Assembly (NCBI RefSeq): GCF_004210375.1
Contig: NC_134837.1
Span: forward strand, 230,377,567-230,441,566
DNA: 64,000 nucleotides
Reading direction: 5' to 3'
From: Tachypleus tridentatus
Taxonomy: Eukaryota
Positions within the stretch are counted from its first letter, which is position 1, and each line of letters opens with the position of its first letter. Of this stretch, positions 4,814-62,620 are shown one piece after another. A program made the position numbers and the translations under genes. The notes below the pieces were generated by a model. That model saw only the letters and a program-made list of their open reading frames with translations, was not told the DNA's origin and ran no database searches.

Positions 4814-5179
4814 ATGACATCAATTTTGGAAGCTTTTGTGCCTGTACTGGGTGTTCTAGGGAAATCTGATTCTTGTGATAGACCAGAAAATTTACAGTTG
4901 TTAGCTGATGAGTTTAAACCATCAACTATTTTATCACTGAAATCAACTTCAGTTAGACAGCCAAGAGAAGGTGCAGATACAACTAAAACACCTGTTATAA
5001 AACAGACAGTTAGCAGTTCTACAAATTATGTTGATAATGTCAAAAGTAAGAACAATGTGTTTGGTGGTCAACAGATTGTACTGGACATACCCTCTTCACT
5101 TAGTCTGAAAGAAAAGCAAAAGTTAAGGGAAAAAATTGTGGATAATGGTGGTCAGTTATCATACATTGTCACAAACAAG
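4814..5179 (+). CDS. PARP4: PARP4-like (vault PARP) exon 1: start codon, ~80-aa Ser/Thr/Lys-rich N-terminal extension, then first half of BRCT domain (…VFGGQQIVLDIPSSLSLKEKQKLREKIVDNGGQLSYIVTNK)
   Basis: ATG at 4814 is the first in-frame Met after an upstream in-frame TAA about 75 nt away. A sits at -3. The ORF runs to an AAG|GTGAGT donor at 5179/5180. The C-terminal part aligns to the human PARP4 BRCT region (KKKLQTDIKENGGKFSFSLNPQ). Confidence 0.75.
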
Positions 5180-8100
5180 GTGAGTTGATTTATGTTAATT
5201 TCTGTATATGGTTTAAAAGAGAGATATTTTGTGACTGAAATCAGTTTTGCTATCCCAAATCAACAGGAGAGCAAACAGTCATGATCAGTGTTTGGACTTA
5301 CAATATTAAAATTAGTGTTACATGTTGTAATTCACTGTATTAGTGTGTAAGCATTTTACCCTTATCTTGAACATATTATTAGAGATCATTTGGTAACAAG
5401 TTTATAAGAGAGAAGAATAGCTCTCATTGACATGAAAACCTACAATTAGTAGTAAATATAAAATATGTAATCTAAGAAGAAAAAGTTACATTTTTATGCA
5501 GATTTTTATCTGATTAAAGTAGAGTTAATATAAACAGTTTGCCTGGTTGTCAAAAGGTTAAGATGGGAATTCATATGATGTGTTTTTTTGTTTTTTTTGT
5601 GGGCTTAATCAAAGTAGTTGGGTTGCACTTCATAATACTATGATACATTGTTCAGTTTGAAAAGGATAAAATTTTTTGTGACTTTTAGTATTTGAATTTT
5701 AAATAGGGTAGATTGTAAGTGATGGGTATAATTTAGCTTTTATTTTTACCACATACGAAATTTTAGTTGAGAGAACATGTTTATTTTACTATTTAGTGTA
5801 GTGTTGTTATCTATATACAGTATTTCAATTGAGAAAATTTTCTCTTTTCTGTGTTTAGGGTACTAGTGTTGTTATTTAATTGTGAAAATGATGTTATTAA
5901 TTGTATTCAATATCCTATAGTAATTGAAATAATGCTTTGTTCTTATCTGTTTATAGTGATGTTGTTATTCATATTATACAATAAAGATGAGAGGATACTT
6001 CTTGTTTCTTTGAAGACAATACCATATCTCTTCATACAGTTATGCTGTCTTCTCCACACATATGCTTTGGGGATTTGCATGCCTCTAACACTTTGTGCAC
6101 TCTCACCTAATCTCTGGATAATTCTTGTCAATTTTGCAAAAGCCCTCCACCAATAAGAGAGTGATGCACTTCTGTGTACACTATTACACTTTATGCATTT
6201 ACACACAAGAATGTTCAATATTTTTTTTACTATTGAATATATCACTTTTTTTTCAAGTTAATGAGGTTTATAATGTTTGAGGAACTTAGTTTCCTTCATT
6301 ACTTCTTCAAACAATGAAATCACAAATTCATGGAACATTTTTTAATATTTGTGTGAATGAAAAATATCCACACGTAGTGTATTTATCAATTTTGGCTCGT
6401 GGAGGCACATTAACTGAGGATGACATGATGACCCCAGGACCTTCATTTCTAGTCCCTTTTTCAGGTGTTCCTTCTTGATTTGAGGAGAGAATGAGGAGGA
6501 TCAGTTTGTTTATTTTGTTCTTCTCCTTGTTATGCTTTATGAACATCTCTCCTTGTTAAAGAGAACCCTCAAACGTTTTGCATTATCAAGACTTAGTTTC
6601 ACATTTTTTCTCTCTATCCTGTGTGGTATGATTCTTCTTACTCCCCACTTCTTAATTTTAATCCTAAATACTTTTTACTGATGTTAGCATTCAAACTGAT
6701 TTCTTCCTTGACCAACTCTGCCTTACTGCCCTTGTCTGTTTCTGTTATCCTGGATTTCAGTCATTCAAAATTCTTTTTCTTGATTTGCAAATTTGAAATT
6801 CTCTTGTCTGTTTGGCATCAGTTTTGCCCTCAAGTGCCCAAACATCTTTGCCCAATACTTCTTATCATATTTCCATATCTCTCTACTCTACAAGTCTGAG
6901 GCACCCCATCGTACTACAGAGTAGGTGATTCTCATTTCCTTCTTTTCCCACTTTGGTAACTCCACATTTTCTACTATTTTATGTTCACTTTGCTCTTTGT
7001 TGCTAAAAGTATTTGGGTAAGGATACTCTCCTTTTTCCAGGTTTGACTTCTTTCTTACCTTCTATGAGATCCTTATCTAGCTCCCTTTCTTTGTCCTAAA
7101 GTTTTTGGGAGCATTTCTGACTTTTATTGAATTATGGATTGAGACTGTTTTAATTCCTTGCTTTCATCTTTAGTTTACATATTGTTCCAAACTCAACCCT
7201 CCATACTGTACCTTGACCTATTCTTATGTTTCCTGTATTTCAATTTCCATTTTTCATCCCTCATCCTTTTCTCATCTTACTTCTACCTGATGTCAGACTC
7301 ATTAAGCTTCTTGGTGACTACTAAGTCAAGTCAGGAACTGTGGTAGCCTCCTTGTCATGGTTTGTGCAACTATGGTCACACTTCTCTGTACACAGAAAGT
7401 TTACTTCACTTCCTACCAATTGAGTTTCTCTAAAATTCTATTCCGTTTTCTATTTCAACCCTTATTCCTTTTCATTTACACCTCCATCCAATCATTTATA
7501 TCTACATTGTCTTAAGAAGATCAATACTTAGAAATTTTTCAGTCAATTCCACTCAGAATCTTGTTTACATGGGAGTTTTTTTAATTATTTTCTCAGCAGT
7601 GCTCAACCTTCTTCTATCTTCCTGCAAGCCATTGAACTAACAGTCACCAGAATTGATACCTCTCTTACTTATATTACTTGAATGGTTTTCTGTTTTTGGA
7701 GACCATGGTTTCACAGGATCTACTTATCTATTTAGCAAATATGTGCCTTTACCAGTGGTCCTTATATGATTACTGGTGAATTTAATGGTTCATCTGTATC
7801 TTCCACTTTTCCAGGATTTGTTTTGGTGACTGGACTGATTCACTGACACCATAAGGGTTCCATTACCTTCACCCAGCCTGAACCTACACCTCTTCACCAA
7901 TGCTTCTCTCTCTCTGGTTTGGGAGCATCTCTGAACAACAATTTCACATTGTGCTCAGGAACCCAAGAGATGTTTTTTCTCCATATCAGTGCACTAAAAC
8001 TTCTGATAGTCCATCAGGCATCCTCCCATTTCTTACCCCTTTTCATAGAACATTCTGTTATGATTCACTAGATCCATGTGTGACATATTCATTACATCAT

Positions 8101-8989
8101 ATCTTTACCCTGAGAATGGAGAAGAATAAAGTTATTCATGATGGGAAACAGAAACAAAATGGGAAAATCCTGACCTCTATTGCAATTCTACATGCACACA
8201 AGATAAAAATTTCAGAAAGTTGGGGGTTGTGCATCATGCAATAAAAAAGTTTTTCCAGTATCATATAAGCATGAGTTCCATTATAATATGATTCCAACAA
8301 CTCTTAAGGTGTATTCCTCTATCAATCACCAAGGGGTACCTGATGCAATGCTCTTAGCTCTCAAACATTTCACATTCTTTATTGGGCCAGTTCGTAACAG
8401 TTTTGTTTTATTGTCATGTACTGGGCATTATGAACCTAGTTGTGAACTGCTTATCAAGACCCAGGGAAACTATGGCATTACTGCAGTGTCCTTGTTTGGC
8501 ATTGTAGTTGGTCTCCTCATAGGGATCCATGGTAGATAGGGTCAGTGGGCACTGAAATATTCTATTGTGATTATGGATTCCCCAACTCAAAATGACCATG
8601 TCTTGAAGATTCTGAACAGCAATATTCAACTTCTTCAACATCTGTACCTTGTTTTCTGATATTACATTCTTTATCATACAAGTCTGTAGGGCAAATGTCT
8701 CCCTTTTTTAATTCAGAAGGGAATTGAGGGGCTTGGTGGCTCTCCTAAGTCACTCAAAAATTACATTCTGGGGACATTTTGGTGGAAACATTCACTCCAA
8801 AACAGAATGAACTCCTCTTGCATTCAAAGGTCATTGAGGTTACTCCCCATGCTACTCTGAATTTCTTATGAGGAGTTATTTTTGAGAGAGATTTGAAGAA
8901 CATTCCTGAGTTAAAGATCCTCTCTGGTTTCTCCACCCAAGGTGTTTCTGCAAAGAGGCATGTCCCCACTTGCAAAGATGAAAATTAAA

Positions 8990-11230
8990 TTGTGATGCCA
9001 ACCAATGTCCTAATTTTGATGTTTACATCACCATGCCCATTTGCCACCATCAAGGCAGGTTATCTAAATTGCAAGGTGCAGCCATGTATTCCAAGCCCTG
9101 TCAGATGTTTCCAATGTCAGCAGTTCAGTCACTTGAAGACATCATGTAGTGGTTCACTGACATGTGCCTGTTGCAGTGGCAAGGACCATGATGCCTATGA
9201 GTGCAAAATGAACCCTCATTGTGCTAATTGTAGTGGGTCTTAACTTTCTTACTTTTCATTCTTGCTCAAAAGTTACTATCGACCTCTCCGTCTCGGACTT
9301 ATGCTGCTGTGCTTCATTCCACTGTTACTGTGGGAGTCTACACAGATCTCTCCATATCTCTGACAGAGTTGTTTTCATACCATGTGAAGAAACTTTTGCC
9401 CTCCATGGTTAAGAGAGTTGACAAGTCATTGTCAGTACCTATTTCTCTCTCCACCATTCCTTCCAGTGGCTCCCAAATCCACTTCCTCTGGTCCATTTTT
9501 TTCTTTGGCCCTGGGATGCAGAACAGTTATTTGTTCATGCCCTTAGTCACTGGAACCTTTATCTACCAGCAAAGGCCTGCCCAATTGACCCAGGGTAGGA
9601 TCCATGGAGGTTGATAGACCTTCTAATAAATAGAAATGATGCAGTCAAAAACAGAAGTGCTCTCCATTCAGTTCTCTCTTACATAAGTAAAAATTTTGTC
9701 ATTAATACAATGAAACAGTTGAGGTTTCAGTGCTGATTTGGATGACATCAAAGCACTGATTGATTCTTACCATTCTGAGTGTCTTACGGGAAACATTTCT
9801 GAGACCTGTTGATACAGTCACCTTTTGGCAGTTTTCTTTGTATAGAAATGACAGGTTATATGATGGACAGGTGCACAAAGGGGTGGCACTACTGGTTGAT
9901 CAGTATCTATCTTTGCCACTCAGTACACCCTTGGAGGATGTAGCCATTCATGTTTTTTTGGGTCATACCATCACTGTTTGTTCTCTCTACATGTTTCCTG
10001 AGGAGACCTATAAACAGTCATACCTTGATGTTCTAATTGAACTGTTGCTGTCTCTCTTTTTAATCCTGGGGGAATTTAATGGACATAATCCTGTCTAGGG
10101 TGGTGCTGATATTGATGGAAAGGGTCATTCTGTAGCACATATGCTCTTGGATCATAACCTTTCTCTCTTCAGTAGTGGTACTTATACTTAGTTTCATCCA
10201 TCTAGTCAGTCTGTTACTGCTGTTGCTCTCTCTATCTGCTGTTCTTCACTTTTCTCTCATTTCTCTTGGAGGGTTGGCAGTGACCCATGGGGCAGTGATA
10301 ATTTTTCTGTCATGTTGAGGGAGACTAGCCATGGTTGATGCCACCCAACCCGTGTGCCACAGTGGAAGCTGGAACTGGCCAACTGGCCCTCTTTCACTAC
10401 TTCCTCAGGACTTGATACTGCCTTTGTCTGTAAGCCATTGATAGACAACTGTGTGGCAACGGTAACTGACTGTATTGTCCAAGCAGATGCTCAATCTATT
10501 CTTAAATCTTTAACATATTTCCCATGGTATCCTTGTTCATGGTGGAATCCTGCATGCCATGTGGCACAGAAAGTTCAAAAATGAGCCTGGGATAGCTTTC
10601 TTAGATATCCTGAACTTTTAAAACCTCATTGCTTTCAAGTGGGCCTATGCACATGCTCAGCAAGTAAGATGTCAAAGCTGGAAGGAATCTTGGATTAAGT
10701 GTTTACATCTAGCATCTTTTCTACTGCCAATTCCAAAGTCATAGGAGACAAAATTTGGAAGGTCAGTGATCAATATACTTTCACCCCCCTTTCAATCTTG
10801 CTCTTCGATGGCCAGGAAGTTGCTGACGTGCAGAGCATCACCAGTACTCTCTGTGAAAGCTTTTCTAATGCATCTAGCACTTCTGCCTCATCACCCATCT
10901 TCTTAGCCATCAAGACTTGGGTAGAGTGATCACCTCTTTCCTTTTGGACTGATTGTCTCTTTGAGTATAATTGCACCTTTACATTGGTTGAACTCAGGCT
11001 TGCTCTTCATCAGTCTGGCAGTAAAACAGTTGGACCTGATGATATTAACTATGAGATGCTGCACCATTTCTCTCCTGTCTCTCTTGTAAGTATTCTGATT
11101 GTTTTAACTGGATCTGGCAGGAAAATGCTTTTTCTGATACGTGGCACCTGGGTATTGTTCTCCCTTTCTCTAAGCCTCTTTTTTTTTTTTTTTTATCAGA
11201 TACCCTATTTGCTTTCTACTAATAAATGCC
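8990..11230 (+). mobile_element. LINE copy 2 (same family): ORF1 CCHC zinc knuckle, EN domain C-terminus, RT N-terminus
   Basis: The 8992-9243 ORF carries CX2CX4HX4C-like knuckles (RCFQCQQFSHLKTSC). An EN block at 9740-10100 reads LRETFLRP…ALLVDQ…GEFNGHNP. An RT region-0 block reads WHLGIVLPFSKP. Nucleotide-homologous to 1-520 and 51450-52300. The 5' and 3' limits are uncertain. Confidence 0.65.
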
Positions 11231-13210: not shown

Positions 13211-13532
13211 TCTTGCAACAGACAAACAGGGTAACAGAATGTGTTCATGCACCCACATGCATGTCAGTAAATCAATATATCTGTTGCTGTAATAATTTCA
13301 GATAAGGATTATGTAAATAGATAAAAGATTCTATTGAGAGTGTACTTTATTTTCTTCTGTGTGGAGTGATATGGTGTCACACATTATCCTAATTGAGAGA
13401 ATGCTATGTTTAATGTTATCTGTAATAATGCCAAAGTTGACAAATGCTTCGTTTTATATGCACGAAGTAACATTATTATTATACATATTTATGATCCTAG
13501 ATGTGACTTTGATTTAATGTTTTTTTACTTAG

Positions 13533-13737
13533 AGTCATATTGTTATTCATATACAAGACTCCAGTCAAAAGAACCTAGTTGGGGAAAAACTAAATAAAGC
13601 TTTGAAGTACAACATACCTGTTGTTACTGAGGATTTCATTGATGCATGCTTACAAGCTAACAAAGTAGTTGATCCACAGCCTTACCTATTCATTAGGAAA
13701 GCTCAGGGAGAGGCATTTCACAGAGGAAAAATTACAG
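13533..13737 (+). CDS. PARP4: PARP4-like exon 2: second half of BRCT domain (SHIVIHIQDSSQKNLVGEKLNKALKYNIPVVTEDFIDACLQANKVVDPQPYLF…)
   Basis: Acceptor ttttttacttag| at 13532 and donor ACAG|GTACTG at 13737/13738. Enters in phase 0 and leaves in phase 1. Matches the human PARP4 stretch THIILDNADVLSQYQLNSIQKNHVHIANPDFIWKSIREKRLLDVKNYDPY. Confidence 0.85.
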
Positions 13738-14094: not shown

Positions 14095-15672
14095 ATATAC
14101 TCTGCTGGCCAAAATCTTAAGGCCAATGAACATAAAGAAAAAATATGCATTTTGCATTGTTAGACTCAACCACTTATTTGAGTAGAGCTTCAAAAGATAA
14201 AAATAAGTAGGGAAAATAAAAATAAAATTTTTTAGCATTTAATAAGAAAAATGTGAACACTATGAAATTAGCCTAAACACTAGCTGGTCAAAAGTTTAAG
14301 ACCATACTGAAACGAAGCGTTAATCAGTAAACACGTATCGAAATTTAGTCATTTGTGTTCAAGCATTAGCGTTGTCAACATCTCCCACTGACATCTCCTG
14401 TGTTACATTGGGTAAAAACATGGCAAAGGCTGAAAAGTTGACAGAGTTGTCGAACTGCAAAAGCAAGGTCTCTCTCAATGTGCCATTGCTGGTGGAATTG
14501 GGCATAGTAAAACTGCTGCTGCAAATTTCTTAAAAGACCCTGAGGGATATGGAATGAGAATTTCAAGTGGTTGGCCTAAGAAAATTTCACTGGCATTGAT
14601 CAGGAGGATTCAGTGGGTTGTCCGGCAAGACAACAGCCGATCGTCAAACCAGATTAAGGCCCTTACAGATGCATAATGCAGCTCAAGAACAATAAGACGG
14701 CATCTATGAGAGAAAGGCTTTAAAAACTGTAAATGTCTTTAAAGGCCACACCTCCTTTCACACCATGAAACAGCTCGGTTAAACTTCTCTGAGAAGCACC
14801 AAACATGGGATGTAGAAAAGTGGACAAAGGTTTTGTTTTCTGGTGAGAAAAAATTTAACCTGGATGGTCCAGATGGCTTCCAGTGTTACTGGCATGATAA
14901 GGATATCCTACTGGAGATATTTTCTACACGACACAGTGGAGGAGGTTCCATCATGATCTGGGGTGCTTTCTCCTCCCATGGAACAATGGAGCTTCAGGTT
15001 ATGTAGGGGTGTCAAACAGGAGCTGGCTACATTGGAATGTTGGAGAGAGCATCCTTATTGACTGAAGGCCCTCGCTTGTGTGGAAATGACTGGATCTTTC
15101 AGCGGGACAATGCTGCAATCCACAATGCCCACAGGACAAAGGACTTTTTCATGGCGAATAATGTGATTCTTTTGGAACATCCATTGTGTTTTCCCCCGAA
15201 CTGAACCCTATTGAAAGTGTTTGGGGGTGGATGGCAGGGCAAGTCTGTAGGAATATACATCAGTTTTAAACAGTGCATGATCTTCGTGAAGCCATCTTTA
15301 CCACTTGGAATAACATTCCAGCCAGCCTTCTGTAAACATTTATATCGACCATGCCAAAGCAAATGTTTGAAGTTATTTGCAATGACAGCTGTGCAACTCA
15401 CTACTGAGACCACTTGTTGGGCATTTCCTACCATTTTTAGGACTTCATTTTGGTATGATCTTAAACTTTTGACCAGCCAGTATTTAGGCTAACTTCATAG
15501 TGTTCACATTTTCCCTATTAAATGCTAAAAAAGGTTTTTTATTTTTATTTTCTCTTTTTTTATTTTCATCCTTCGAAGCTCTACTCAAATAAGTGGTTGA
15601 GTCTAACAACGCAAAATGCATATTGTTTCTTTATGTTCATTGGCCTTCAGATTTTGGCCAGCAGTGTATATA
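14095..15672 (+). mobile_element. Tc1/mariner-superfamily DNA transposon (Tc1-like, IR/DR-type) with degraded DDE transposase
   Basis: Inverted repeats of about 215 bp at 14095-14305 and 15455-15672. Each has an outer (…TATACTCTGCTGGCCAAAATCTTAAGGCC) and inner (…CTAGCTGGTCAAAAGTTTAAGACC) copy of a CTGGYCAAAA transposase-binding-like direct repeat. The internal ORF remnant reads …[19 protein letters not shown]…[12 protein letters not shown]…IFQRDNAAIHNAHRTKDFF. It ends with Tc1-like tail similarity but is broken by stops. Confidence 0.85.
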
Positions 15673-24055: not shown

Positions 24056-24174
24056 TTAATCCAACCAAGCCAATTAGAAACAAGACGTTCAAACCACTGC
24101 TACTGAATTCACTTTCTGTATATCCCTATGAAGGACTAGATGGGTATGACTTGGTGAAGGGAATTGTTTTAAAA
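24056..24174 (+). CDS. PARP4: PARP4-like exon 3 (linker between BRCT and helical domain; VNPTKPIRNKTFKPLLLNSLSVYPYEGLDGYDLVKGIVLK)
   Basis: Strong acceptor tttgtttgtttttatag| and donor AAAA|GTAAGC. The 119-nt length converts phase 1 in to phase 0 out, exactly what exons 2 and 4 require. Protein similarity to the human linker is weak. Confidence 0.55.
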
Positions 24175-24264
24175 GTAAGCTCTTTGTTATAATTAGTTAA
24201 CTCTGAAACAATAGATTCCTTTGCTTTTAAGTTACATCAGACTTTGTTGTTTTGATTAATTTAT

Positions 24265-25790
24265 TACACCATGTAACATAGAATTTGTTCCAGGATACTA
24301 TGGGTTATTTTTTAATTTCTTATGTTGTAAAAGTACAGAAAATGTCCATTTTTCTCTTCAAACTTTGCTTGTGTGACCTGGATAATGAAATTTAGAAATT
24401 AACGTATTTTCTATGTGAAAATGGGCAAACTTGCACTTTTCATTTACATGAGGTCTGAATAAAACAACATATGAATCAAGATTTACATGTATCTATATTA
24501 AAGTTATACAAAAATGAATAAAAATGTTTAGAAGTGAGTAGTTTTTCACTTATCAGCCCCCAAATATAATCTCGACATTCAACTTTGTTAGACCAAGATC
24601 TCTAATCAAGTCATTGAGGTCTCTTTGGTTAGGGTAGTATGAGTTTCTCTCACCATCTGCCCCTCTGAAATTGTAATCTGGATTTTCAACGTGTACTTCC
24701 TCTTCTGATTTGCTGCTCTTTTGTGAGGGTGGCTGCTTTCTCTCTGGTACAGTGGGTACAAAGGAGCTCAGGGCAGTGTGGCACTGGGGTGATGGATGAT
24801 GGAAAGTCGAGATATATGATAGCAGATGCATTCTTCCAAGCCTGACGTTTGGAAGGGTCCATCTTGCAGAAGTAGCAATTTCTTGAGTGGTCAGTGGGTT
24901 CACACCAAATTCTTGGAATAGCAAGTGTCATGGCTCTCTTTTCCCCTCTGCACCATCCCACAAAAGAGCAAAATAAAATTGTTATTATGAAGAATAAATT
25001 TATTTCATCCACAACTAATGTGTAAGAGGTTCATGCAAAATATTTTGTGATATTTTTTTCTATACTATAGGAAATTAAAAGAAAAAAAAAAGATATTTAA
25101 ATTTTAAAAGGTTTAAAATGTGTATAATATAAAATCTTACTATTCAAACAAACAGCAATTGTCTGTCTTACCTTCTAGAGTTTTTTTGCGGTCCTCATAG
25201 GTATAATAAGGTGCTCAGGGTTTGGCTTGATCCCTGAGAGGCATGCCGAAATATGTCTTGTAGGCTTCACATATTTTAGCAGATACTGTCACAGAGTACT
25301 TTTTTGCTCTTGTATTAATAGATTGGCTACATACATAGCAGAATGTATTTGGAGAATTCTTGCAGCTTCTTGATGCCACCTCTGATAAAATCAGATAGGT
25401 TTATGTGTTCACTTAGGCAGCTAGAACCAAACTGAAGTGGTGAGTGGTGAGCTCCTGTATATGTATTACTATGAAAAATTCAAGAAAATTCTTGTAAGTG
25501 CTACAACATTCTAGAAAACTCTTGCAAGTTTTACAACATTCTAGAAAATTCTTGTAAGTTTGAGAAAATTCTCTGTTAGCTCCTCAGCACTGAACCTACC
25601 TGGAATGTTTTGGAAAATGGGTAAGTTTGAAAATTTCATTACCCAGGTCAGAAAAGCAACATTTGAAGAGAAAAATAGGTCTTTTCCATTTACTTTAGGC
25701 ATAAGGAACTGGGAAATAACACTTTCTGCACAGGAACAAGAAAAAGTAAAATTTTGTTACATAGTGTTATGTATGAATTAGATCACCTGA
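24265..25790 (-). mobile_element. Interspersed repeat copy A (about 1.5 kb) encoding on the minus strand the N-terminus of a conserved repetitive metazoan ORF (…IPRIWCEPTDHSRNCYFC…NPDY…NQRDLNDLIRDLGLTKLNVE)
   Basis: About 88-90% identical at the nucleotide level to 48985-50940. The minus-strand ORFs at 24553-25012 carry a WxxPxDHxxxCYFC motif followed by an acidic/Ser stretch and a DLIRDLGL block. The 3' side carries 30-bp tandem repeats (CTAGAAAATTCTTGTAAGTTTTACAACATT). Confidence 0.7.
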
Positions 25791-31700: not shown

Positions 31701-31748
31701 TTGATTTCCAAGAAGTCACTGAAGTTTTAACAAATTTTACCTAAATAG

Positions 31749-31931
31749 GGTAATCACAAGATACAACATCTCCAAGCAGTGGTTAAAATGGGTGATTCAT
31801 CTCATGATACATCAAAGAATCAAGTTGTATTATTCCTTGTTATTGAACTTCATGTTTCTTTTGGACATGATAAAGACAGCAAGCAACAATATTGTATATT
31901 CACTCATCAAGGGAACTTGTTGAAGCTTGAG
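31749..31931 (+). CDS. PARP4: PARP4-like exon 4 (…KMGDSSHDTSKNQVVLFLVIELHVSFGHDKDSKQQYCIFTHQGNLLKLE)
   Basis: Donor GAG|GTAATT at 31931/31932. Aligns to the human stretch EKVGMEGGQEAVVVELQCSRDSRDCPFLISSHF. The 5' boundary is ambiguous: acceptor ttttacctaaatag| at 31748, or cacaag| 12 nt downstream. Both are phase 0. Confidence 0.55.
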
Positions 31932-32562: not shown

Positions 32563-32715
32563 TCAAGTGTTAGAGAGTGTCGGTATGTGGAATCACCAGA
32601 AATGGCACTGTCAGTATACACTCAGCTTTACAATAAAGCTACAAGCTCACCCTTTTTCATGAAGAGTTGTACTCACGTATTGCATACTGATTTAGGTTCT
32701 CCTGCCTTTCAAAAG
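32563..32715 (+). CDS. PARP4: PARP4-like exon 5 (SSVRECRYVESPEMALSVYTQLYNKATSSPFFMKSCTHVLHTDLGSPAFQK)
   Basis: Acceptor tcttttttttgttgtag| and donor AAG|GTTTGT. The 153-nt length keeps phase 0 to 0. Weak similarity to the human stretch KKTSEDASEYFENYIEELKKQGFLLREHFTPEATQLASEQLQ. The spacing between conserved blocks matches human. Confidence 0.5.
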
Positions 32716-44866: not shown

Positions 44867-45004
44867 CTCCAGAGTGAATGGAGCAAGACAGCTGTTAATG
44901 TGTCTCCAGAAGTTCTTGGCCTTGTGGATTTTCTCTGGACAGAAGCAATGGGTCACTTGACAACATTTTTATCTGTGCCACCTGCACAAATTCCTCAGTG
45001 GAAA
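44867..45004 (+). CDS. PARP4: PARP4-like exon 6: start of PARP alpha-helical regulatory domain (LQSEWSKTAVNVSPEVLGLVDFLWTEAMGHLTTFLSVPPAQIPQWK)
   Basis: Acceptor gttttgcattattcag| and donor AAA|GTGAGT. Phase 0 to 0. Aligns to human LSQEVSDLVEMIWAEALGHLEHMLLKPVNRISLNDVSK. Confidence 0.88.
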
Positions 45005-48054: not shown

Positions 48055-48231
48055 ATTGATGAAGCAGAAGGAATTTTGTCCCAACTTGAAAAACTCTTGA
48101 AAGAACAAAACATTAAGGATCTTATGGTGCGACTAAGTCAGGAATTTTACTCTGTTTTGCCTCATCATCCACAACATCAGTGTCCAATCTTAGACAAGAA
48201 AGTGTTAGTGCAGAAGCAAGACTTATGTCAG
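48055..48231 (+). CDS. PARP4: PARP4-like exon 7: PARP regulatory domain (IDEAEGILSQLEKLLKEQNIKDLMVRLSQEFYSVLPHHPQHQCPILDKKVLVQKQDLCQ)
   Basis: Acceptor tttatttacag| and donor CAG|GTTTGT. Clear alignment to human AEGILLLVKAALKNGETAEQLQKMMTEFYRLIPHKGTMPKEVNLGLLAKKADLCQ. Confidence 0.9.
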
Positions 48232-48984: not shown

Positions 48985-50568
48985 CTTATGATTACACTAT
49001 GTAACACAAATTTTGTTCCTGGATAGTATGTGTTATTTCTGAATTGCTTATGTTGTAAAAGTACAGAAAATGACATTATTCCCTTCAAACTTTGCTTTTG
49101 TGACCCGGATAATGAAGTTTAGAAATTAACCTATTTTCAATATAAAGACGGGCAAACTTGCACATTTTCATTTACATAAGGTCAGAATAAAACAATATAT
49201 GAATCAAGATTTACATGTATTCATACTAAAGTTATATAAAAAAATATTTAGAAGTGAGTAGTTTTTTGAGATTTGTGTCTATAATGTAAATCACTTTCAT
49301 GTATCAACCCCCAACTATATTTTCCCATCATATTTTCATTATACACTCTGGTAGCAGCATTCAACGTACAGTATATCTTGGTGCAAGTGCTCACGTTGCT
49401 CTTTGAGGTGCACTAAATGAGCCAGGGGAAGAGATGGATACTTATTCTCATTATGGAGCAGCACAGCTTTGAGGCTTCTGGATGAGCTATAAATGAAGAG
49501 GCACTACTCGTTCAGGTTATAGGCATTTCCAATTGCCTTGCACAGACCGGATACATTGTGACAGAAGCAGAGCCCATCTTGACAAGTGAAGAAACTTGAA
49601 AAATGTCACTGACACTTCCTCTAACGTTCGAGTTGCACACTTTCATTTAACAAATCTCACTTCTTGAGCCTAGATGTTAAAAGCTTGGCATTCAACTTTG
49701 TTAGACCGAGATCTCTGATCAAGTCATTGAGTTTTCTTTGGTTGGAGTAGTATGAGTTTCTCTCATCAGCTGCACCTCTGAAATTGTAATCTGAATCTTC
49801 AATATCTACCTTCTCCTCTTATTTGCTGTTATCTTCTGAGGATGGCTGCTTTCTCTCTGGCAGAGAGGGTACAAGGGAGCTCAGGGCAGTGTGGCACTGG
49901 GGCGTGGATGATGGAACATCCAGATGAATGGTAGCAGATGCATTCTTCCCAGGCCGACATTTGGAAGGGCCCACCATGCAGAAGTAGCAATTGCTTGAGT
50001 GGTCAGTGGGTTCATGCCAAATTCTTGGAATAGCAAATTTCATGGCTCTGTTTTCCTCTCTGTACCATCCTGCAAAAGAGCAAAATAAAATTGTTATTAT
50101 GAAGAATAAATTTATTTCATCCATAACTAATGTGTAAGAGGTTCATGCAAAATATTTTATATGTGATATTTTTTCTATACTATTGGAAATTAAAAGAAAA
50201 AAAGATAATTAAAATTTTTAAAGGTCTAAAATTTGTATAATATAAAATCTTATTATTCAAGCAATCAAAAATTGTCTATCTTACCTTGTAAAGTATTTTT
50301 GCAGTGCTCACAGGTAAAATTAGGTGCCCAGGGTTTTGTCTGAATCCCTGACAGGTATTCTGAAATATGCCTTGTAGGCTTCACACATTTTAGCAGATGC
50401 TGTCACAGAGTACTTTTTCACTCTTGTCTTGATAAATTGGCCACATACATAGCAGGATGCATTTCGAAAATACTTTCAGCTTCTTGATGCCATCTCTGAT
50501 AAAATCAAATAGGTCTGTGTGTTCACTTATGCAGCTAAAATTAAACTAAAGTGGTGCGTGGTGAGCCC

Positions 50569-50614
<46 letters not shown>

Positions 50615-50940
50615 CTATAGAAGGTTCTAGAAAATTCTAAAAGGTTCTTGAAAATTCTTGTAAGTTTTACAACATCCTAGAAATTCTTGTAAGTTCTACA
50701 ACATTCTAGAAAGTTCTTGAAAATTCTTTTAAGTTTGAGAAAATTCTCTATCAGCTACTCAGCTCTGAATCAACCTGGAATATTTTGGAAATTGGGAAAA
50801 TTTGAAAATTTCATTACCCAGGTCTTTGAAAAGAAAAATAGGTCTTTTCCTTTTACTTTAGGCATAAGCAATTGGGAAATATCACTTTCTACCCAGGAAC
50901 AAGAAAAAGTAAAAGTTTTATTACATAGTGTTATTAGTCA
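48985..50940 (-). mobile_element. Interspersed repeat copy B (about 1.9 kb) of the same family as 24265-25790; contains a (TA)n microsatellite
   Basis: The minus-strand ORF at 49819-50124 reads MDEINLFFIITILFCSF…KFAIPRIWHEPTDHSSNCYFCMV…. A (TA)~20 run sits at 50572-50612. A 30-bp tandem repeat x about 4 sits at 50600-50740. Confidence 0.7.
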
Positions 50941-51449: not shown

Positions 51450-54000
51450 TTTGCTGTTTTTGTTCAAAGATCTAGCCAATTTCCCCTCTTTCATCACTCT
51501 CTCACAACTTGATCCTGGTATCAGTAGATGACAGCATGTTGGCAGTGACTGACTTTGTTGTCCAGGTAGCTGCTCACTCTATTTCTAGGACTTCATCATG
51601 TTTTCCACGGTGTCCACACCTATGAGAGAAACCTGCCTGTCAGGAGGCATGGAAGGCTCATAAACAGACTTGGGATACCCTTCACAGGTATCCCACTCAT
51701 TCAAACCACATTGCTTTCCAATGAGCCCATTCTTGTGCTTGGCAGGTTAGACATTAAGGCCAAAATGAATCTTGGATTAAGTTTACAACTGTCAACCATT
51801 TCAAAAGTCATATGGGATAAGATTCAGAAAGTCAATAGAAATAATTCTTTACATCCCCTTATCATCTTGCTCTTCACTGGACAAGGGAGTTCCTGATGTA
51901 TAGAGCATGGCTAATACTCTCAGTGAGAGCTTTTCTCATGCATGTAGCACTTCTGTTTCTTCTCATGCTTTCTTGGCCATCTAGTCTCTGGCAAAGTGAG
52001 CACCTCTGTCCTTTCTGGTTGATCATTTCTATGACTATAATTGCTCCTTTACACTGGTGAAACTTAAATTTGGTCTTCATTTATCTGGCAGTACTTTGGT
52101 CAGACCTGATGAGGGTTACTGTTAGATGCTGTACCATCTCTTTCATGCCTCTCTTGCTATTATTCTGGTTGTTTTTAACCTAATCTGGCAGAAAAATGTT
52201 TTTCTTAATACTTAGTGTCAGACTATTATCCTTTTTTTCTCTAAATCAGCGAAGTATCCCAAGATTCCTTCTAATCTTTGTCTAATTTATTTGGCAAGCT
52301 GTTTCTCTATGATCTTAGAGAGGATGATTAATGCTCTTCGTGTTTGGTTCCTTGAATCACATAACCTCCTCTCATCCATCCAGTATGGGTTTCATGGACA
52401 GCACTCCCACCATGCACCATTTTATTTTACTTCAAATTTTGATCAAGGAAGCTTTCCTCAAGGGAGAGCATCATGTTTATGTGTTCTTTGGCCTTGAGAA
52501 AGCTTAAAACAATATGTATTGAATTAGATTACAGTAAATGGTTTTACCTTTTCTTTTTCCAAAATCATTTGCATACATTTTTGCCACCAGTGGAGCCAAC
52601 TTCCTGGTCTCAAATACTGTCTCAGTGATGTTATTCTTCTTGTGGATCCTGAGGCAAAGTTCTTTGGACTTATCCTTTACTGTAAACTTACTTTTAGTTC
52701 TCACATAAAGCAGCTGTGTGTTATATGTACAAGGGCACTAAACATTCTCTATGTCCTTTTTTTTCACCTTTTTGGGCAGCAGATTGGTGCTCTGTACACA
52801 AGGTCTATGGTGCCATCATTTGATCCAAACATCATTATGGGTTTCTGGTCTATGGTTCTGTGAGGACCTTGGCCTTGAAGATGCTGGACCCCATTCACTG
52901 TCTTGTCTTTGACTTTCTATACAGGCTTTTCACAGTTTGTACACACAGTCCCATGAATATTCTCTTCACCTCTAGCATTTGCAACTTTTAATCTTTACCA
53001 CAACATACCATATGGGGTTGTATCTTTCTTCCTCAATGAGCCATGCTCTTTCAAAATAGATGGTCTGCAATTCCTGCTTTAGGCCTTCATATCCAGACAG
53101 AACTGAAAGAAATTAGTCTGGAATTGGAAGACATTGCTGTCCCTAATGATCAGTCCATTGCATCATGTCTTATTGCTATTCCCAGATGTGACCTTTCTTT
53201 GATTAAACCTGAAAAGGTGGATACGTCTAATTGAAATTACCACCTTCTCTTTGACGAACATCTTTTGAACCATCTTTCTATTCCCATTTATGCAGATGGT
53301 TTGAAAACTGATGACTCTCTGGGCTCTGCCATGGTTTGTTGTGGCAGAGTGGTTGCTCACAAAATTCACTCTGCAATTTCTGTGGTCATTACTGAGTTGT
53401 ATGCCATTTCTCTTGCCCTGGATCATGCAAAGGCAATGAAGCACACCAACTGTACTGTTTACACTGACTCTCTTCACATTAATACTTACCCTGTTCTCTT
53501 TAATATTCAATGACACTTGGCCCATTGTTTCTTCATATTCCATTGATAAAAAATTTTTTGATATCTGGCTATGTTGATATTTATAAGAACAAGCTTGCTG
53601 ACACTGAAGCTAAGTGTGTCTATTCTGGTGCTGTTATGGCCATTCCTTTTTGATATATGGACTATAGTCAGCTCTTGAAGACTCAACTTATTGCTAGTTT
53701 ACAGTCATCATGGTGTGAAAAATGTGATAACAAGCTTTTCCAGGTTAAACCTTTTGTTGCTCCGTAGCCTTCTTGTTTCTGTAATGATTGGAAGGAGAAA
53801 GTTGTCCTGGCTGGGCTACACAGTGGTCACAGTTTTCTTTTATCTGGGTCTGACCCGCCAACATGTGGCCTTTGTAAAACTCAAGTCACAATAACTCACA
53901 TTCTACTGTCATCCTGCCATTAAGATCGTGCTCAGCAGCACCAATTTCAGCAGGTCTTTTCCATGTGTTTACCCCTTACAGTGATGACGTCAGTGGTGAC
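51450..54000 (+). mobile_element. LINE copy 3 (same family): RT, RNase H and C-terminal Cys-rich tail; 5'-truncated and degraded
   Basis: Nucleotide homology to 1-2165 and 10440-11230. An RNase H block reads CGRVVAHKIHSAISVVITELYAISLALDHAKAMKHTNCTVYTDSL. The tail reads …NKLFQVKP… then a CxxC/HIL-like C-terminus near 53800-53920. Confidence 0.75.
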
Positions 54001-55026: not shown

Positions 55027-55187
55027 GTTCTTCGAGATATGGCCTCAGTAAGTGAGACAACAGGTTGGATGACAGAGGGACGACAATATGCAAAGTATCA
55101 AGCTCTTCGATGTCACATTACCTACCTGCATGAAAGTAGTGAAGAATATGAAAGAATTAAAGGCCATATCTTAGAATCACAAAAGAG
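55027..55187 (+). CDS. PARP4: PARP4-like exon 8: end of regulatory domain (VLRDMASVSETTGWMTEGRQYAKYQALRCHITYLHESSEEYERIKGHILESQK-)
   Basis: Acceptor tttttgtag| and donor AG|GTAGGA, leaving in phase 2. Aligns to human LIRDMVNVCETNLSKPNPPSLAKYRALRCKIEHVEQNTEEFLRVRKEVLQNHHSK. Confidence 0.88.
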
Positions 55188-56048: not shown

Positions 56049-56306
56049 AATGGCCTAATGGTTACTGTGCTGGGATGGCAATCTAAACATTCATGGCTAA
56101 GCTTCCATCAACAAAAAATTTTACCCTTCACTTTGGAGACATGGTGCATTATATAAGAATGTTTAAACTCTTCTATTCAGTTAGGGTAGCAAAAAGTTGT
56201 TACTGGGTGCTGTTCAGTAATTGTCTTTTTATTAGTCTTAAGTGCTTAAAAATAAGGGTGGCTAGTGTAGATAACCCTCATTTAGCTGTGGACAAATTTT
56301 TAAAAC
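56049..56306 (+). mobile_element. tRNA-derived SINE, copy 2 (diverged)
   Basis: Shares the 3' tail GGTGGCTAGTGTAGATAACCCTCAT and the central block GGTAGCAAAAAGTTGTTACTGGGTG with the copy at 37553-37822. Putative TSD AGAAGGAA/AGAAGGTAA. Confidence 0.6.
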
Positions 56307-56510
56307 AAAGAAGGTAATTTCAATGGGATATAATTATTGTATGTGTTTTTGTACTCTAAAAGGTTTATAACATGTATGGTGACTAATTATTCTGCTAATA
56401 TATTTGTAAGTTGTTTGATACAAAACATCTTATCTTTCTGAAAAACATTGATATCATTTTGTAAGTAAAGATTTCTTGATTACAGCAGAAGTTTGTAATT
56501 ATCTTTCTAG

Positions 56511-56747
56511 GGATACTGGCATACAGGTCCACAACATCTTTTGTGTACAGAGAGATATAGAAACTGCAGAATTTTTCTATCATCTGTCTAATCACAAAGA
56601 ATTGTATCATGCCACACGTTCTGAAAACTTGGTGGGAATCTTGTCTCGGGGTCTTCATCCTCCAGTATCTGTACAAACTGAATATGATGAAAATCAGACA
56701 GATGTAGACATGTTAGGAGCAGGAATATATTTTGCTGATTCTGCGAG
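56511..56747 (+). CDS. PARP4: PARP4-like exon 9: PARP catalytic domain part 1 (…ELYHATRSENLVGILSRGLHPPVSVQTEYDENQTDVDMLGAGIYFADSA)
   Basis: Acceptor atctttctag| and donor GCGAG|GTACTT. Phase 2 to 2. Aligns to human PLLHGSPVQNIVGILCRGLLLPKVVEDRGVQRTDVGNLGSGIYFSDS. The catalytic His and the nicotinamide-stacking Tyr are present. Confidence 0.9.
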
Positions 56748-57049
56748 GTACTTTTTGTTAAAGAAATAGTTAATTCAGATAAAAGAAAGTACTTGTGATT
56801 ATAACCTTCCTGTGCAACTAATGTCACAGACAGACAGTCTATTTTTCTTTATTTCAGAATTAATTAAGAAGAAATTGGTTAACACAGTGTAATGTATCAC
56901 TGTATTGATGAATCTGTAATTTAAGTTGGACAAGTTTTCAATGGATATGAACTATTTTCAGAGTTTTGTTAACAACAGTTACCATCTGTCTCTGAAACTT
57001 TTTCAAAATAGCATACTTATTCTCGTTAAAACATTATAGTTAATAAAAA

Positions 57050-57441
57050 CAGAGATATATGTAATGTACAAATTAATGCATGAAATAATAGATATTTAAA
57101 AGAAATTTCATGAATATAGGATATAAGAATAATTGGTACTTGTTATTGATTTCAGTACTTGCATAAAGTACTCTAACAGAGAGAGATATGTAATGTACAA
57201 ATTAATGCATGAAATAATATAGAGATATTTAAAATAAATTTCATGAATATGGGGTATAAGAATAATTGTAACTTGTTATTGATTTCAGTACTTGCATAAA
57301 GTACTCTAACAGAGAGAGATATGTAATGTACAAATTAATGCATGAAATAATATAGAGATATTTAAAATAAATTTCATGAATATGGGGTATAAGAATAATT
57401 GTAACTTGGTATTGATTTCAGTACTTGCATAAAGTACTCTG
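57050..57441 (+). repeat. Tandem array, 133-bp unit x about 3.0, spanning the intron-9/exon-10 junction; each unit carries a 3' splice site (…TTGATTTCAG|TACTTGCATAAAGTACTCT)
   Basis: TTTCAG ends at 57155, 57288 and 57421, with identical 20-nt downstream sequences. Only the third continues as the open exon-10 frame. The first two run into …AACAGAGAGAGATATGTAATG… with an in-frame TAG. Confidence 0.85.
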
Positions 57442-57605
57442 ACTTTTGCAAAGAACGAGGAACAAGATTTCTTTTGGTATGTAAAGTAGCTCTGGGCAAA
57501 ATTTATGAAACATACATGTTTGATACTACTCTGACATCTCCTCCAGAGGGTTTTGATAGTGTTCAAGGTGTTGGTAACTCTGAAATCAAGAAGTCTTATT
57601 TTATG
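57422..57605 (+). CDS. PARP4: PARP4-like exon 10: catalytic domain part 2 (STCIKYSDFCKERGTRFLLVCKVALGKIYETYMFDTTLTSPPEGFDSVQGVGNSEIKKSYFM)
   Basis: The acceptor is the third of three tandem tttcag| sites, at 57421. Donor ATG|GTAAGT. Aligns to human STSIKYSHPGETDGTRLLLICDVALGKCMDLHEKDFSLTEAPPGYDSVHGV. Confidence 0.88.
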
Positions 57606-60600
57606 GTAAGTGAAATAAATTATCTGACCTTTCATGATGAAAAAAACATTTACAGTCACGGTACATGCATGTTAGTTTCATTTTATTTTAGGGTATTTAT
57701 TTGAAGAGTTTGATTTAGCATATGTTTATGTTTTCATAAGAAATGGAATTAATTTTTCATTTTTAATGGAAGCAAATGTATTGGTACTTAATTCCACTGG
57801 ATACACTCTTGTTTATTGTAACAAACTGATCAAGTGTTAATTTCAATAATTATTTTAATTTGCTAATGATTTTTTATTGGAAACAAGTTATATTGACTTC
57901 TACTGGAATTTTATTATAATGAATTGACTTTATAATAACTTCTATGAGAAGTTATTAATCATTTATTGTTTGTATGTAATCTTGAACATATGTGAAAGCA
58001 TTGAATTTCAAAATAATAAACTGAGATAGGCTTGAATACCACCAGTTGTGGTCTGTGTACAGGTTTACAATTTGCATGTGAACTTTTTGGAGAGAGGGAC
58101 CCCACATTTTTGTAGGACCTTCTTATATGTTTAATAATTCACAATCTTTTTTTATATTTAATTATTTCTTAGATATTTACAAATATGATTTACTATGATA
58201 CCTTTGGTTAAGCCAATATTATAGTTTTTTCCTACAATACCTTCTTTTCAGAATGGGTTTTTCTTGTCACCCATTGCACTGTCTTATAGTGTTTGGTTCC
58301 TCAGGACCCACCACAGTGTTGTTCCACTTTATTCCATTGGGGTCCTGAAGTCCTTGCCACTTACCAGCTCCTAGCTGCTGGAGTGGAGCTCAGTGAAGGC
58401 TTCTTTCAGAGTGTGATCATTTCCATTCATTTGAGACTTGGGTGGTTGTGATCAGTTGATGTAGATGGTGAATACTCTCCTCCTACTGAGGAGCAGAACA
58501 CAAATTTTAATGCTGCCTGGTTTTGGACTAGATGAATCCACCATAAGCAGTTCACCCTTTCAGCTGGTTTTCCTCTCTCCTTTTGCTGCCTGAATGTTGA
58601 TTCCTAGGTGGTGTCTGGTTTTGATATGTTCTGACATCAAGCAAATAAACAAACAAAAAAAAAAAATTACATAAAAGCAGTATTTGTGTATAGAGATTAT
58701 GGTCTTGTAGTCATTGATGGAGATTTCTCCAAACTGAAAGTAAAACAACTACGGGTGAAATACTCAAAACTAATTTCATTTAAATTGTCACTAAATATCT
58801 TTAATGAAAGTAAAACAGATGAAGCACTCAAAACTAAGTGCATTTAAATTGTCACAAAGTAAGTTAATAAGTATACCCTTTTTACAATTTATTTCTGAAC
58901 AAACTGCAGAACCATTGTGATTAAAGGATTATAAAGTAGCATTCATTTCTCAAAACAAAATTGCTAACCAGTTACAAATACTCAAAAACCTAAAAAAGAT
59001 TGAATATAATGATGGAATATATCAACTTAGATGCAGTTGCAGTAAAATGTACATAGGATAAACAAGAAAGAAATTAAGAACAAGAATGAATGAACATCAG
59101 TTTTGTATAAAACATGGTAACATGCTGTAGTCAAACATTTCTGGATCTATGACAGTACTTATGACTCTAATAATGTAAAAGTTTTAAGATGCATACAGAA
59201 TAACACAGAAAGAAACTTGAGAGAAAGTATATACTTAATAACAGATACCTGTGTATAAGCAGAGGTCATTGGCCAATAAATGTCCCTTTAGAAGACCTGT
59301 TCATCATAAATATTCTAGCATATATGACTTACCTTCCCACATGTATCTTGATCTTGTTTTTTTCAAAAGCAAACTTTCCCAGTTGAAACTAAATTTTACT
59401 TAACTGATACTGTAGAATTTTACTTTGATGATGGTAAAACTAATTGGCTGTGAGTTATATTAAGTATTTGTACTTATCATTGTGCCAAAAAAATGTCGTT
59501 TGTTTGTTATTGTTGCTCTTAATAAACCAGAACATAAAACTGTCATAGAACAAGCCAGAATAAATCTTCCTACAACAGTATGCACAAAAATTGATGATGC
59601 TGTGTGACTTTGGACTTGTGTTAACCCACCACAACCAACAAAAATAAACATGGGACAGATGGAGTGAGGTCTCCTATGAGTTTGGCCTTAGACATTAGCA
59701 TATCTGACTCCATGGGGTTTCTTAGTATGTGTTTTCTGAAGAGTGCTCATTTAGGTAATTTTACCACCAGACCTTCCATCTTTTCAGTGTAGGATTGTAA
59801 CTATTATGCGAGTGGAGTTAAGGTGTTGTATTAGAATTAACATTTTACTGCACTGAAAATTTTTTTCTAGTTTGTACTTACTTCTTCTCACACTTTCCAT
59901 CTTTTCCACTTCCAGTGCATCTTTTTTTCCTCTAATCTTGAAATGCATATTGTGCTCTACAGTGCAATGACATTAATCTATACTGCAAGGGTGTGTTGCA
60001 TTCCTGTTGGTGAAGGGCTGTTGCATGCTCATTTGCATGCTACCGTGCAGCTATACCAGCTGTATACCACATGAAGTTAGGTAGGGTAGGAGTCTTTAAG
60101 GTAATGGCAAGTGACAACTGCACATATAAAAGGCAACACAAATCAAGGAAAGCTGTTATGGGAGGAGAGGTAAGTATTTATTGGAAATACATTTCCATTG
60201 TAGGAAAATGTTAACTTTGTAAAGCATTGGTGAGATGTGAATTTATGCTATGTGAAAATTAAGAAACTAAAATTAAAAGCCCTTTAACACAATATAAATT
60301 AGCACTATGGAAATATTGGGCTCTTATTAATCATTGTGCTCAATAATTGACAGCATTTAACTAATGGATTATTATCCACCTGTCTGAAAACAAAAACCTG
60401 TTCTTTTAAAGAAACTTGACAGATAAAGTACCATATCATTATTCAGGCAATACAAACCAACATAAAATATGTTGGAAGTACAATAAAATCACTGAGCACA
60501 TACACTGGTATTACTCAGTAATCAACATCCATGAAGAATGTTGGAAATACATAGGCACTTCAAAAGTGTTAAAGCAGCAGCATTTATGATATGAATGTCT

Positions 60601-60789
60601 TTTTAAGTTGGTGAAACGTAATTATAATTAATTAGACATTACTTGTAGTTTTTCAACACATCATATTATATCTAGCCCCTTAGGGATTTTTAAGAATTAG
60701 AAGTGTACTAGTGAAGCTATGGGTCTATGGTCTACATTCAGAGGATTGCTGTAGTGCAAGTTTTAATGCTTTTTGCAAACCAAGTTAAG

Positions 60790-61055
60790 ATGCCTACTTA
60801 TTTACATGCTATAATGTAAATGAATACCAAATTTGAAACCTACATTTGGGAAATCTTTATAAAAGTGGAATCACTAAGAGGTTGGGTGAAAAGCTTTACC
60901 TTTGTGCAAACATTATGACAGAGATGATTTATATAGCACCATTTAGAAGTTGTTGGATCCAGCAGTTTAGGAAAAGAGATTTCTGGGAAATCCCCACTTT
61001 CCCCAAGGGATGGATTGAAGACTTTTACATTTGTGCAAACCTCTAGGCCAAAATA
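60790..61055 (+). repeat. Interspersed repeat family X, copy 2
   Basis: See 45995-46340. Confidence 0.55.
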
Positions 61056-61888
61056 TATATTTTCTTCTCAAGAAAATTTTAAAGGACATGCAGTCCTTCA
61101 GCAGTGAGAGAACCAGGATCACTGCTGCATACAGTACAGCATGCAGCTGAAGTTGTGTTTGTATCTGTGTCTTGCAAGGTAGCTACTTCTATCGTGCTTT
61201 TGGATACACTGTATCAGGTAAGAACCACCTGAGTGAGAGCTCAGTCATCTCTTGCCATTGTGCTGATATATACAATCCTTCAGATAACAGTGAGAAATTG
61301 ACTTATTATTTGAGAATAATATTGCAAATAATTCTTAGGGTAACTCTGTTGTTCACATACTTGTCTTATGACATAAACATTATTTATCTTGTAGGGGAAA
61401 TAGTCACTTACATTTAGATTTTCTTGGGCAATTTAATTTTTTAGTGGTCACACAAGTTAGTCCAGGAAAATCTTTTGGTTAGTCTCAACCTTTTTGGTGG
61501 ACAATGGCAAATGGACCACCATTAATTTTGACCTGTGTATATAATTGTTTGAATTGATCAAATCTTCCATAATGCAGATTTTATTGATGTCATCTAAGAT
61601 GCAGCTTATAAGTATTTCTAAGCCTTCACACCACTAATATGACTTGAGAACCTATCAATACAAGCATAAAGGAATTCTCCAGTTATATCTGTAGGAAGAT
61701 CAGAAACAACAAATAAGATATACATGTGCAAATTTAAGTTATTTTGAAAAGTTTTTGATGAACAAGAAATATAAAAAGAAATAATGTGATTTAATTTTCA
61801 AACCACAATTGAAATAATCTGATATAGTTATTGCCCTGATTTTATATAAATCTAATTAAAATTTTTTTTTCATGTTTTGTTGTTTCAG

Positions 61889-62069
61889 GACAATGAATTT
61901 GTTGTGTATGATAAAAATCATCAACAGCTGTGTTACTTAGTGGAGTTTTCCATACCAGAGGAACAGAGTTTAATTTCTATGGACTTATATTTCTATAGAT
62001 GTGATGTTAAAGATGCGTTTTTATGTAAATTGCCATTTGATGAAAAAGAAATATTTGAGTACAATACTA
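61889..62069 (+). CDS. PARP4: PARP4-like exon 11: catalytic domain part 3 with catalytic Glu (DNEFVVYDKNHQQLCYLVEFSIPEEQ…)
   Basis: Acceptor gttgtttcag| and donor ACTA|GTAAGT, leaving in phase 1. Aligns to human DDEFVVYKTNQVKMKYIIKFSMPGDQ. The catalytic Glu of the E-F/Y-V-V-Y motif is conserved. Confidence 0.88.
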
Positions 62070-62477
62070 GTAAGTATTATTTAATTATTATTATTATATA
62101 TTCTTTGTTCACTACAACAAAACTTTACTGTAATTTGATATTTAATTTATGAAGGATCTCATGAATTTAATTTCATTCAGTAATTTCTGATGTACTACAT
62201 TCTTGTGGACTTCTGAAATACTGTTTTTCATTATTGAATAAACACATTATATTTTCTTCAAGATCTGAAGTTCGTAGTGGTAAGGATATTGGTTTTGTTT
62301 CTTTTTAGCTACTGAAATATCTAAGACAGTGTCTTTGTTATAATTATCCAGAAATTTCATTATTAAAGCCACTCTTTTCCCTAGATGTCCATTGATAACT
62401 CTTAGAAAGGCTTTGTTTTTATATCCAAATACTGAATCTCAGTTCTTCTTTCTTTGAAATGTGCTTTTGTTTTCTAG

Positions 62478-62620
62478 ATATTGATGATGTCAGTAATGTC
62501 GAAGATTCATTGACTAAGGTGACTGTTGGTCTACAGATGTTAGATTCTTCAGGTCAGCAATTATCTCTGCCTCTTCAAACAGTTCATGTTCGAGCTCAGA
62601 TGTTTGACTTAGTGTCTAAG
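62478..62620 (+). CDS. PARP4: PARP4-like exon 12: start of VIT domain (NIDDVSNVEDSLTKVTVGLQMLDSSGQQLSLPLQTVHVRAQMFDLVSK)
   Basis: Acceptor ttttgttttctag| and donor AAG|GTTTGT. Phase 1 to 0. Aligns to human GLQDASGNLVPLEDVHIKGRIIDTVAQV, the VIT domain N-terminus. The gene continues beyond 64000. Confidence 0.85.

Follow-up and report, generated by a model that had tools for sequence, protein, structure and literature searches.

Does an alanine in the nicotinamide pocket set a horseshoe-crab PARP apart from its relatives? The question is raised by a 64,000-nucleotide stretch of the Tachypleus tridentatus genome (contig NC_134837.1, positions 230,377,567 to 230,441,566 of the forward strand), which we call the window and number from its first letter. 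A preliminary description, made from the sequence alone, had recognized in it an orthologue of PARP4, the vault PARP, and had pointed to the triplet H-A-T where H-G-S is canonical. PARP4, or vPARP, constitutes clade 5A of the PARPs (Citarelli et al. 2010; PMC2964712). We find that the window very probably holds the first 12 coding exons of an ordinary, functional PARP4 orthologue, and that its H-A-T is normal variation within the clade.

Identity and extent of the gene

The window is AT-rich (about 33% G+C) and the introns are long, reaching 12 kb, as expected for a eukaryotic gene. We built the gene model from tblastn searches, using human PARP4 as a lead only and then the Limulus polyphemus protein P0001. 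It comprises 12 plus-strand exons between positions 4814 and 62620, with 749 codons in an open frame, GT-AG at every junction and consistent phases. The twelve-exon layout given in the preliminary description was confirmed, and the peptides that it quoted lie on the plus strand where it had placed them: LYHATRS at 56602-56622, GIYFADSA at 56722-56745, followed by an intron and then by (S)TCIKYS from 57422, and DNEFVVY at 61889-61909.

Pfam identified a BRCT domain (residues 80-162, E=5e-10), PARP_reg (residues 384-458, 34.9 bits against a cut-off of 26.8) and the PARP catalytic domain (residues 485-662, 106 bits) in the model. These are three of the four domains that had been assigned to the twelve exons; the fourth, VIT, had no Pfam match in the 749-residue window model. 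A 2198-residue protein returned by our profile search (P0015), which is about 95% identical to the model, has BRCT, PARP_reg and PARP by Pfam and, in addition, VIT at residues 735-845 and vWA at 982-1140. Exon 12 ends at residue 750 of this protein, so that about 16 VIT residues fall inside the window. Pfam found no WGR domain in the window model at E≤0.1. The residues that separate BRCT from the helical domain can be aligned to the corresponding part of vertebrate PARP4-like proteins and are WGR-like by position; human PARP4 itself has a divergent WGR fold without the W-G-R residues (PMC10711553). This WGR-like segment, encoded by exons 3-5, had not been mentioned previously.

The proposed assignment to PARP4 stands. 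In a phmmer search of the PDB, the ADP-ribosyltransferase (ART) domain matched human PARP4 with E=1.1e-46, compared to 6.4e-15 for the best PARP1, and the domain architecture of P0015 and its 41% identity to lemur PARP4 over about 1000 residues bear out the same identity. The BRCT domain and the extreme C-terminus of P0015 also align with the lemur protein, each with a pairwise E=2e-5. Those top matches of the profile search that carry names are annotated as PARP4 or PARP4-like; among named proteins P0001 (LOC106457063) from Limulus is the closest, followed among chelicerates by the scorpion Centruroides, which places the source among horseshoe crabs or very close relatives.

The coding sequence of P0015 runs unbroken along L001, a contig of 6831 nucleotides from a public sequencing-run assembly (Logan SRR3401116). 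As this contig contains no introns, we take it for a transcript, and its source for a very close relative. When aligned to the window by blastn, it fell into exactly 12 contiguous blocks of 94-99% nucleotide identity whose ends are the exon ends, which supports the exon joins at the transcript level, from a close relative rather than from the same genome. P0015 is thus a direct orthologue with the same exon structure, and it also carries H-A-T. Past exon 12 the contig extends for a further 4.4 kb of sequence that is absent from the window, indicating that the gene runs off the 3′ end. The window carries the 5′ third of the gene, with VIT, vWA, a disordered region and a MINT-like C-terminus very probably lying beyond it. 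Comparing the window model with L001 over 749 codons gave a synonymous divergence (dS) of 0.062 and a ratio of nonsynonymous to synonymous divergence (dN/dS) of 0.34, with zero stops or frameshifts. The gene is under purifying selection, which argues against a pseudogene.

Human PARP4 (PDB 8SX1, 8SWY and 9BW6; PMC10711553, PMC12280208) has the same order of BRCT, WGR-like region, helical domain and ART, after which the orthologous transcript goes on to encode VIT, vWA and a weakly MINT-like C-terminus. The window protein differs in its extra N-terminal tail of about 80 residues before BRCT and in a longer linker after the ART domain, and human PARP4 has 1724 residues compared to the 2198 of the orthologue. 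PARP1-3 share the ART fold, the helical regulatory domain and the H-Y-E triad, and PARP1 also has BRCT followed by WGR. However, their similarity to the window protein is weaker (E of about 1e-14 to 1e-10), and the window protein has no zinc fingers, with VIT and vWA following the ART domain in its orthologue.

The active site and the residue after the triad histidine

The H-A-T triplet is encoded by CAT GCC ACA at 56608-56616 on the plus strand, the codon for Ala535 being GCC at 56611-56613, and L001 uses the same codons. Numbered by a HMMER alignment to the full-length human PARP4 chain, H534, A535, T536, Y574, T581, C582, Y585 and E644 of the window protein correspond to H438, G439, S440, Y477, T484, S485, Y488 and E547. 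The human triad H438/Y477/E547 and T484 are named in PMC10711553, consistent with this numbering. The H-Y-E triad (His534, Tyr574 and Glu644) is intact, as the preliminary description had stated, and the second stacking tyrosine, Tyr585, is kept. Thr581 is the PARP4-specific threonine that replaces PARP1 Lys903, one of the acceptor-site changes consistent with mono-ADP-ribosylation (PMC10711553). With the triad, Tyr585 and Thr581 all retained, the activity is most likely NAD+-dependent mono-ADP-ribosylation, as in human PARP4, and the ADP-ribosyl transferase activity that had been predicted is a reasonable expectation by homology.

Three pocket residues differ from human PARP4: Gly439, Ser440 and Ser485 are Ala535, Thr536 and Cys582 in the window protein, and relative to PARP1, Gly863, Lys903 and Ser904 are Ala, Thr and Cys. 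Ala535 thus stands in place of the glycine of the canonical H-G-[ST] anchor of PARP1-3 and tankyrases. PARP1 uses backbone atoms of Gly863 to bind the nicotinamide carboxamide, and the side chain of its Ser904 contacts nicotinamide. Since the glycine contact is made by the backbone, a small side chain at this position would be expected to be compatible with binding, and Ala535 should be tolerated. The substitution at the Ser904 position, Cys582 (57426-57428), is absent from the preliminary description; the same change from serine to cysteine recurs in P0015, the scorpion, Hydra, Lytechinus and other PARP4 orthologues.

To place H-A-T among its relatives, we searched 1.84 billion cluster representatives with a profile of four database PARP4-like proteins and aligned the best 150 matches to the ART domain of the window protein. 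A profile alignment with single-exon rows was set aside, as it would have left too few columns to serve as profile positions. Matches were counted as having PARP4 architecture if they also covered the VIT-vWA region of P0015, which left 90 representatives. The residue after the triad histidine is Gly in 32 of these, Ala in 31, Ser in 26 and Cys in 1, so that 58 of the 90 do not have glycine, which is thus no defining trait of PARP4. The triplets are HGS and HAS (26 each), HSS (21), HST and HGT (5 each), HAT (3), and HAF, HAL, HCS and HGI (1 each). Among the 65 highest-ranked of the 90, which are vertebrate and invertebrate animal sequences, the proportion without glycine rises to 56 of 65. Matches that do not cover the VIT/vWA region have Gly in 52 of 63 cases, and it is near-invariant in the PARP1-3-like ones; the named non-glycine proteins of this group that were read (P0001, P0002 and P0003) are truncated PARP4 models.

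The variants are scattered across many lineages. H-A-T itself occurs in the frog Leptobrachium and the sea urchin Lytechinus as well as in P0015, and H-S-T in Limulus, the scorpion Centruroides and Hydra; the Limulus sequence reads H-S-T-H compared to H-A-T-R in the window. H-A-S is found in Nematostella, Mytilus, the shark Heptranchias, frogs and turkey, and H-S-S in unionid bivalves, the urchins Lytechinus pictus and Diadema, an eel, the frog Spea and a caecilian. The leech Helobdella has H-C-S, while H-G-S is carried by mammals, a sea snake, a rotifer, a nemertean, a millipede and a dictyostelid. By sequence comparison, then, the position after the histidine is labile in PARP4, with Ala or Ser as the common state in animals, and their wide distribution indicates that H-A-T is ordinary clade variation with nothing special to this locus. 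That Ala and Ser are common in long, conserved orthologues agrees with the tolerance expected for a small side chain. The preliminary description had called the pattern uncommon among PARPs with an H-Y-E triad, a claim that does not survive 58 non-glycine residues in 90 and an exact H-A-T in a frog and a sea urchin. It had also said that orthologue alignments in which H-A-T proved common in the clade would overturn this claim; that is the outcome obtained, and the motif is unremarkable.

Could Ala535 and Cys582 nevertheless reflect a functional remodelling of the nicotinamide pocket, with NAD+ affinity, inhibitor sensitivity or activity markedly different from those of the H-G-S PARPs? Both of the PARP1 nicotinamide anchors, the backbone of Gly863 and the side chain of Ser904, differ in the window protein, and the tally of matches without VIT/vWA shows how rarely the PARP1-3-like proteins depart from glycine. 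However, these substitutions are widespread among PARP4 orthologues of many phyla that are full-length and conserved, the glycine makes its contact through backbone atoms, no triad residue and neither tyrosine has been lost, and the gene is under purifying selection. We consider remodelling at this locus quite improbable, and any effect of Ala on NAD+ affinity would belong to the PARP4 family rather than to this gene. Short PARP4-like models in the databases (P0001 with 530 residues, P0002 with 561 and P0003 with 551) suggest a different alternative: a PARP4-like paralogue cut short not far past the catalytic domain, or a pseudogene in decay that stops there. Paralogues are possible, given the whole-genome duplications in the history of horseshoe crabs, and no VIT/vWA exon was seen in 62621-64000. 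Additionally, a tandem repeat of a 133-bp unit in three copies (57051-57440, plus strand, 95% matches) spans the 3′ end of intron 9, the acceptor (TTGATTTCAG) and the first ~20 nucleotides of exon 10, so that two decoy acceptors arise upstream, at about 57154 and about 57287. The repeated part of the exon encodes (S)TCIKYS, splicing to either decoy would meet a stop codon, and the third copy alone stays in frame and agrees with the transcript of the relative.

Against truncation, none of the 12 exons is damaged and their splice sites are canonical, the frame is open where exon 12 ends at a good donor, and a transcript that is 94-99% identical continues into VIT, vWA and the C-terminus. With introns that reach 12 kb, 1.4 kb without an exon is uninformative, and the short database models stop in intron read-through or at exon boundaries, as partial predictions would. 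The Limulus protein illustrates this. It is a direct orthologue, with 83-94% protein identity per exon and less over partly read-through alignments, yet its RefSeq model LOC106457063 skips exon 7 and terminates by reading into the intron that follows exon 9 (...ADSARYELFSEYC). This is a gene model left incomplete rather than a paralogue of reduced length. Given the intact exons, the collinearity with the transcript and a dN/dS of 0.34, we rejected both the pseudogene and the truncated paralogue, which we regard as highly improbable.

The reading that we prefer, an ordinary functional PARP4 orthologue with a common pocket variant, has several points weighing against it. The tally counts representatives of clusters at 50% identity, not independent evolutionary events, and it takes in partial gene models and unnamed proteins from metagenome and run assemblies. 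The exon joins depend on the transcript of a relative and on splice signals, and the two decoys just upstream of exon 10 might interfere with splicing in the genome of the window. Finally, activity with Ala535 and Cys582 is predicted by homology, and no non-mammalian PARP4 is known to have been assayed.

Exon structure and repeats

All exons lie on the plus strand. Exon 1 (4814-5179) begins with the ATG at 4814, encodes the N-terminal tail and the first half of BRCT, and was found by tblastn with P0001 and P0015; its donor is AAG/GTGAGT, with the slash marking the junction. At least 19 nucleotides of 5′ untranslated region precede the ATG, from 4795 (the L001 block 154-538 corresponds to 4795-5179 with 97% identity). 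Nucleotides 1-153 of L001, which belong to the 5′ untranslated region, had no match in the window. Just before the part shared with L001, the window reads ...GCTGTTTTAG/GACAGG at about 4803 and resembles a splice acceptor, so an exon of the 5′ untranslated region may lie upstream of the window.

The second half of BRCT is encoded by exon 2 (13533-13737), which is supported by tblastn, splice sites and an L001 block. What follows BRCT and precedes the helical domain, the positional counterpart of the WGR-like region of PARP4, starts in exon 3 (24056-24174; tblastn and L001) and continues through exon 4 (31749-31931), which is 99.5% identical in nucleotides to L001, into exon 5 (32563-32715), which adds a linker. 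The helical (regulatory) domain starts in exon 6 (44867-45004), continues through the 59 codons of exon 7 (48055-48231), which is present in L001 and absent from the Limulus model P0001, and ends in exon 8 (55027-55187), where the ART domain begins. Exons 5, 6 and 8 are each supported by tblastn, splice sites and L001. Within the ART domain, exon 9 (56511-56747) carries His534-Ala535-Thr536 and the triad residue Tyr574 (56728-56730, in GIYF), and exon 10 (57422-57605) carries Thr581 (57423-57425), Cys582 and Tyr585 (57435-57437). Exon 11 (61889-62069) completes the domain with the catalytic Glu644 (61895-61897, in DNEFVVY) and enters the linker, which exon 12 (62478-62620) continues into the first ~16 VIT residues, with the frame open at the donor AAG/GTTTGT. 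The exon 11 donor at 62069 was picked from the transcript alignment, as four in-phase GT sites were possible; donors at 61967 (a weak GTTTAA), 62000 and 62024 were ruled out because L001 and P0015 read through to ...EYNT/N. One by-product of this work is therefore a corrected 12-exon model that includes the exon missing from the Limulus RefSeq entry and a transcript-backed exon 11 donor.

The introns and the upstream flank also contain dispersed repeats. In intron 2, a degraded open reading frame at 14434-15201 has internal stops and motifs of the Tc1/mariner transposase type, and inverted repeats at 14095-14317 and 15443-15671 (89% identity) flank it. One interspersed repeat is present in three plus-strand copies with 65-72% identity, at 1-2140 upstream of the gene, 10372-11135 in intron 1 and 51469-53751 in intron 7. 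From the repeat structure and a reading of the peptides, its open reading frame fragments look like remnants of a retrotransposon of the type without long terminal repeats. Pfam gave no credible match for ten transposon-like open reading frame fragments. A further family has two copies with 82-86% identity, at 24263-25770 in intron 3 and 48991-50934 in intron 7. Scans of the window with Rfam at gathering thresholds and for transfer RNAs found nothing.

Vaults in arthropods and the PARP4 family

The preliminary description had taken the PARP4 architecture to imply that the organism has vault particles. According to Citarelli et al. (PMC2964712), this architecture is found only in animals known to contain vaults. 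The 298-residue C-terminus of P0015 had no match in the PDB at E≤0.01. With a shorter C-terminal query, the best PDB match was human MINT residues 1578-1643, a weak one at E=0.26 against all of the PDB; together with the pairwise alignment to lemur PARP4 described above (E=2e-5), this constitutes a weak similarity to the MINT domain of PARP4. The equivalents of S1614 and K1618, two MINT residues that contact the major vault protein MVP (PMC12280208), are conserved in P0015. Vault particles in this organism are plausible, the evidence for them being the weakly MINT-like C-terminus of the orthologue.

In a search with a human MVP query, which is 100% identical to a chimpanzee entry, only vertebrates appeared among the 120 matches listed, a result that is uninformative on chelicerates. 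We found no usable literature on MVP in chelicerates such as horseshoe crabs and ticks. No arthropod MVP was found by Daly et al. in 2013 (PMC3762200), and copepod MVPs were reported later, in 2021 (bioRxiv 10.1101/2021.03.15.435234). Long PARP4 proteins of 1390-2198 residues that match the VIT-vWA region of P0015 are present in the millipede Chamberlinius (P0090) and the scorpion Centruroides (P0036), in addition to P0015 itself. Tentatively, and as a rather unlikely reading, a PARP4 with a MINT-like tail in a horseshoe crab, a scorpion and a millipede would speak for the survival of vaults in arthropods other than insects, against the statement of 2013 that arthropods lack MVP. Whether the loss of vaults affected arthropods as a whole, or only lineages such as insects, is a question to which full-length PARP4 in chelicerates and a myriapod is relevant.

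The locus itself is of little import, being one more ordinary orthologue in an enzyme family that is well described. The presence of Ala or Ser after the triad histidine in most animal PARP4s does matter when pocket chemistry or inhibitor design from human PARP4 is extrapolated to other species. We also entertain, tentatively and as a rather unlikely reading, that loss of the otherwise near-invariant, nicotinamide-anchoring glycine to Ala or Ser, accompanied here by Cys at the Ser904 position, is an ancient, family-wide trait of animal PARP4 that could tune NAD+ affinity or inhibitor sensitivity, with glycine regained or retained in mammals and a few others. If this were true, human PARP4 would be atypical of its family.

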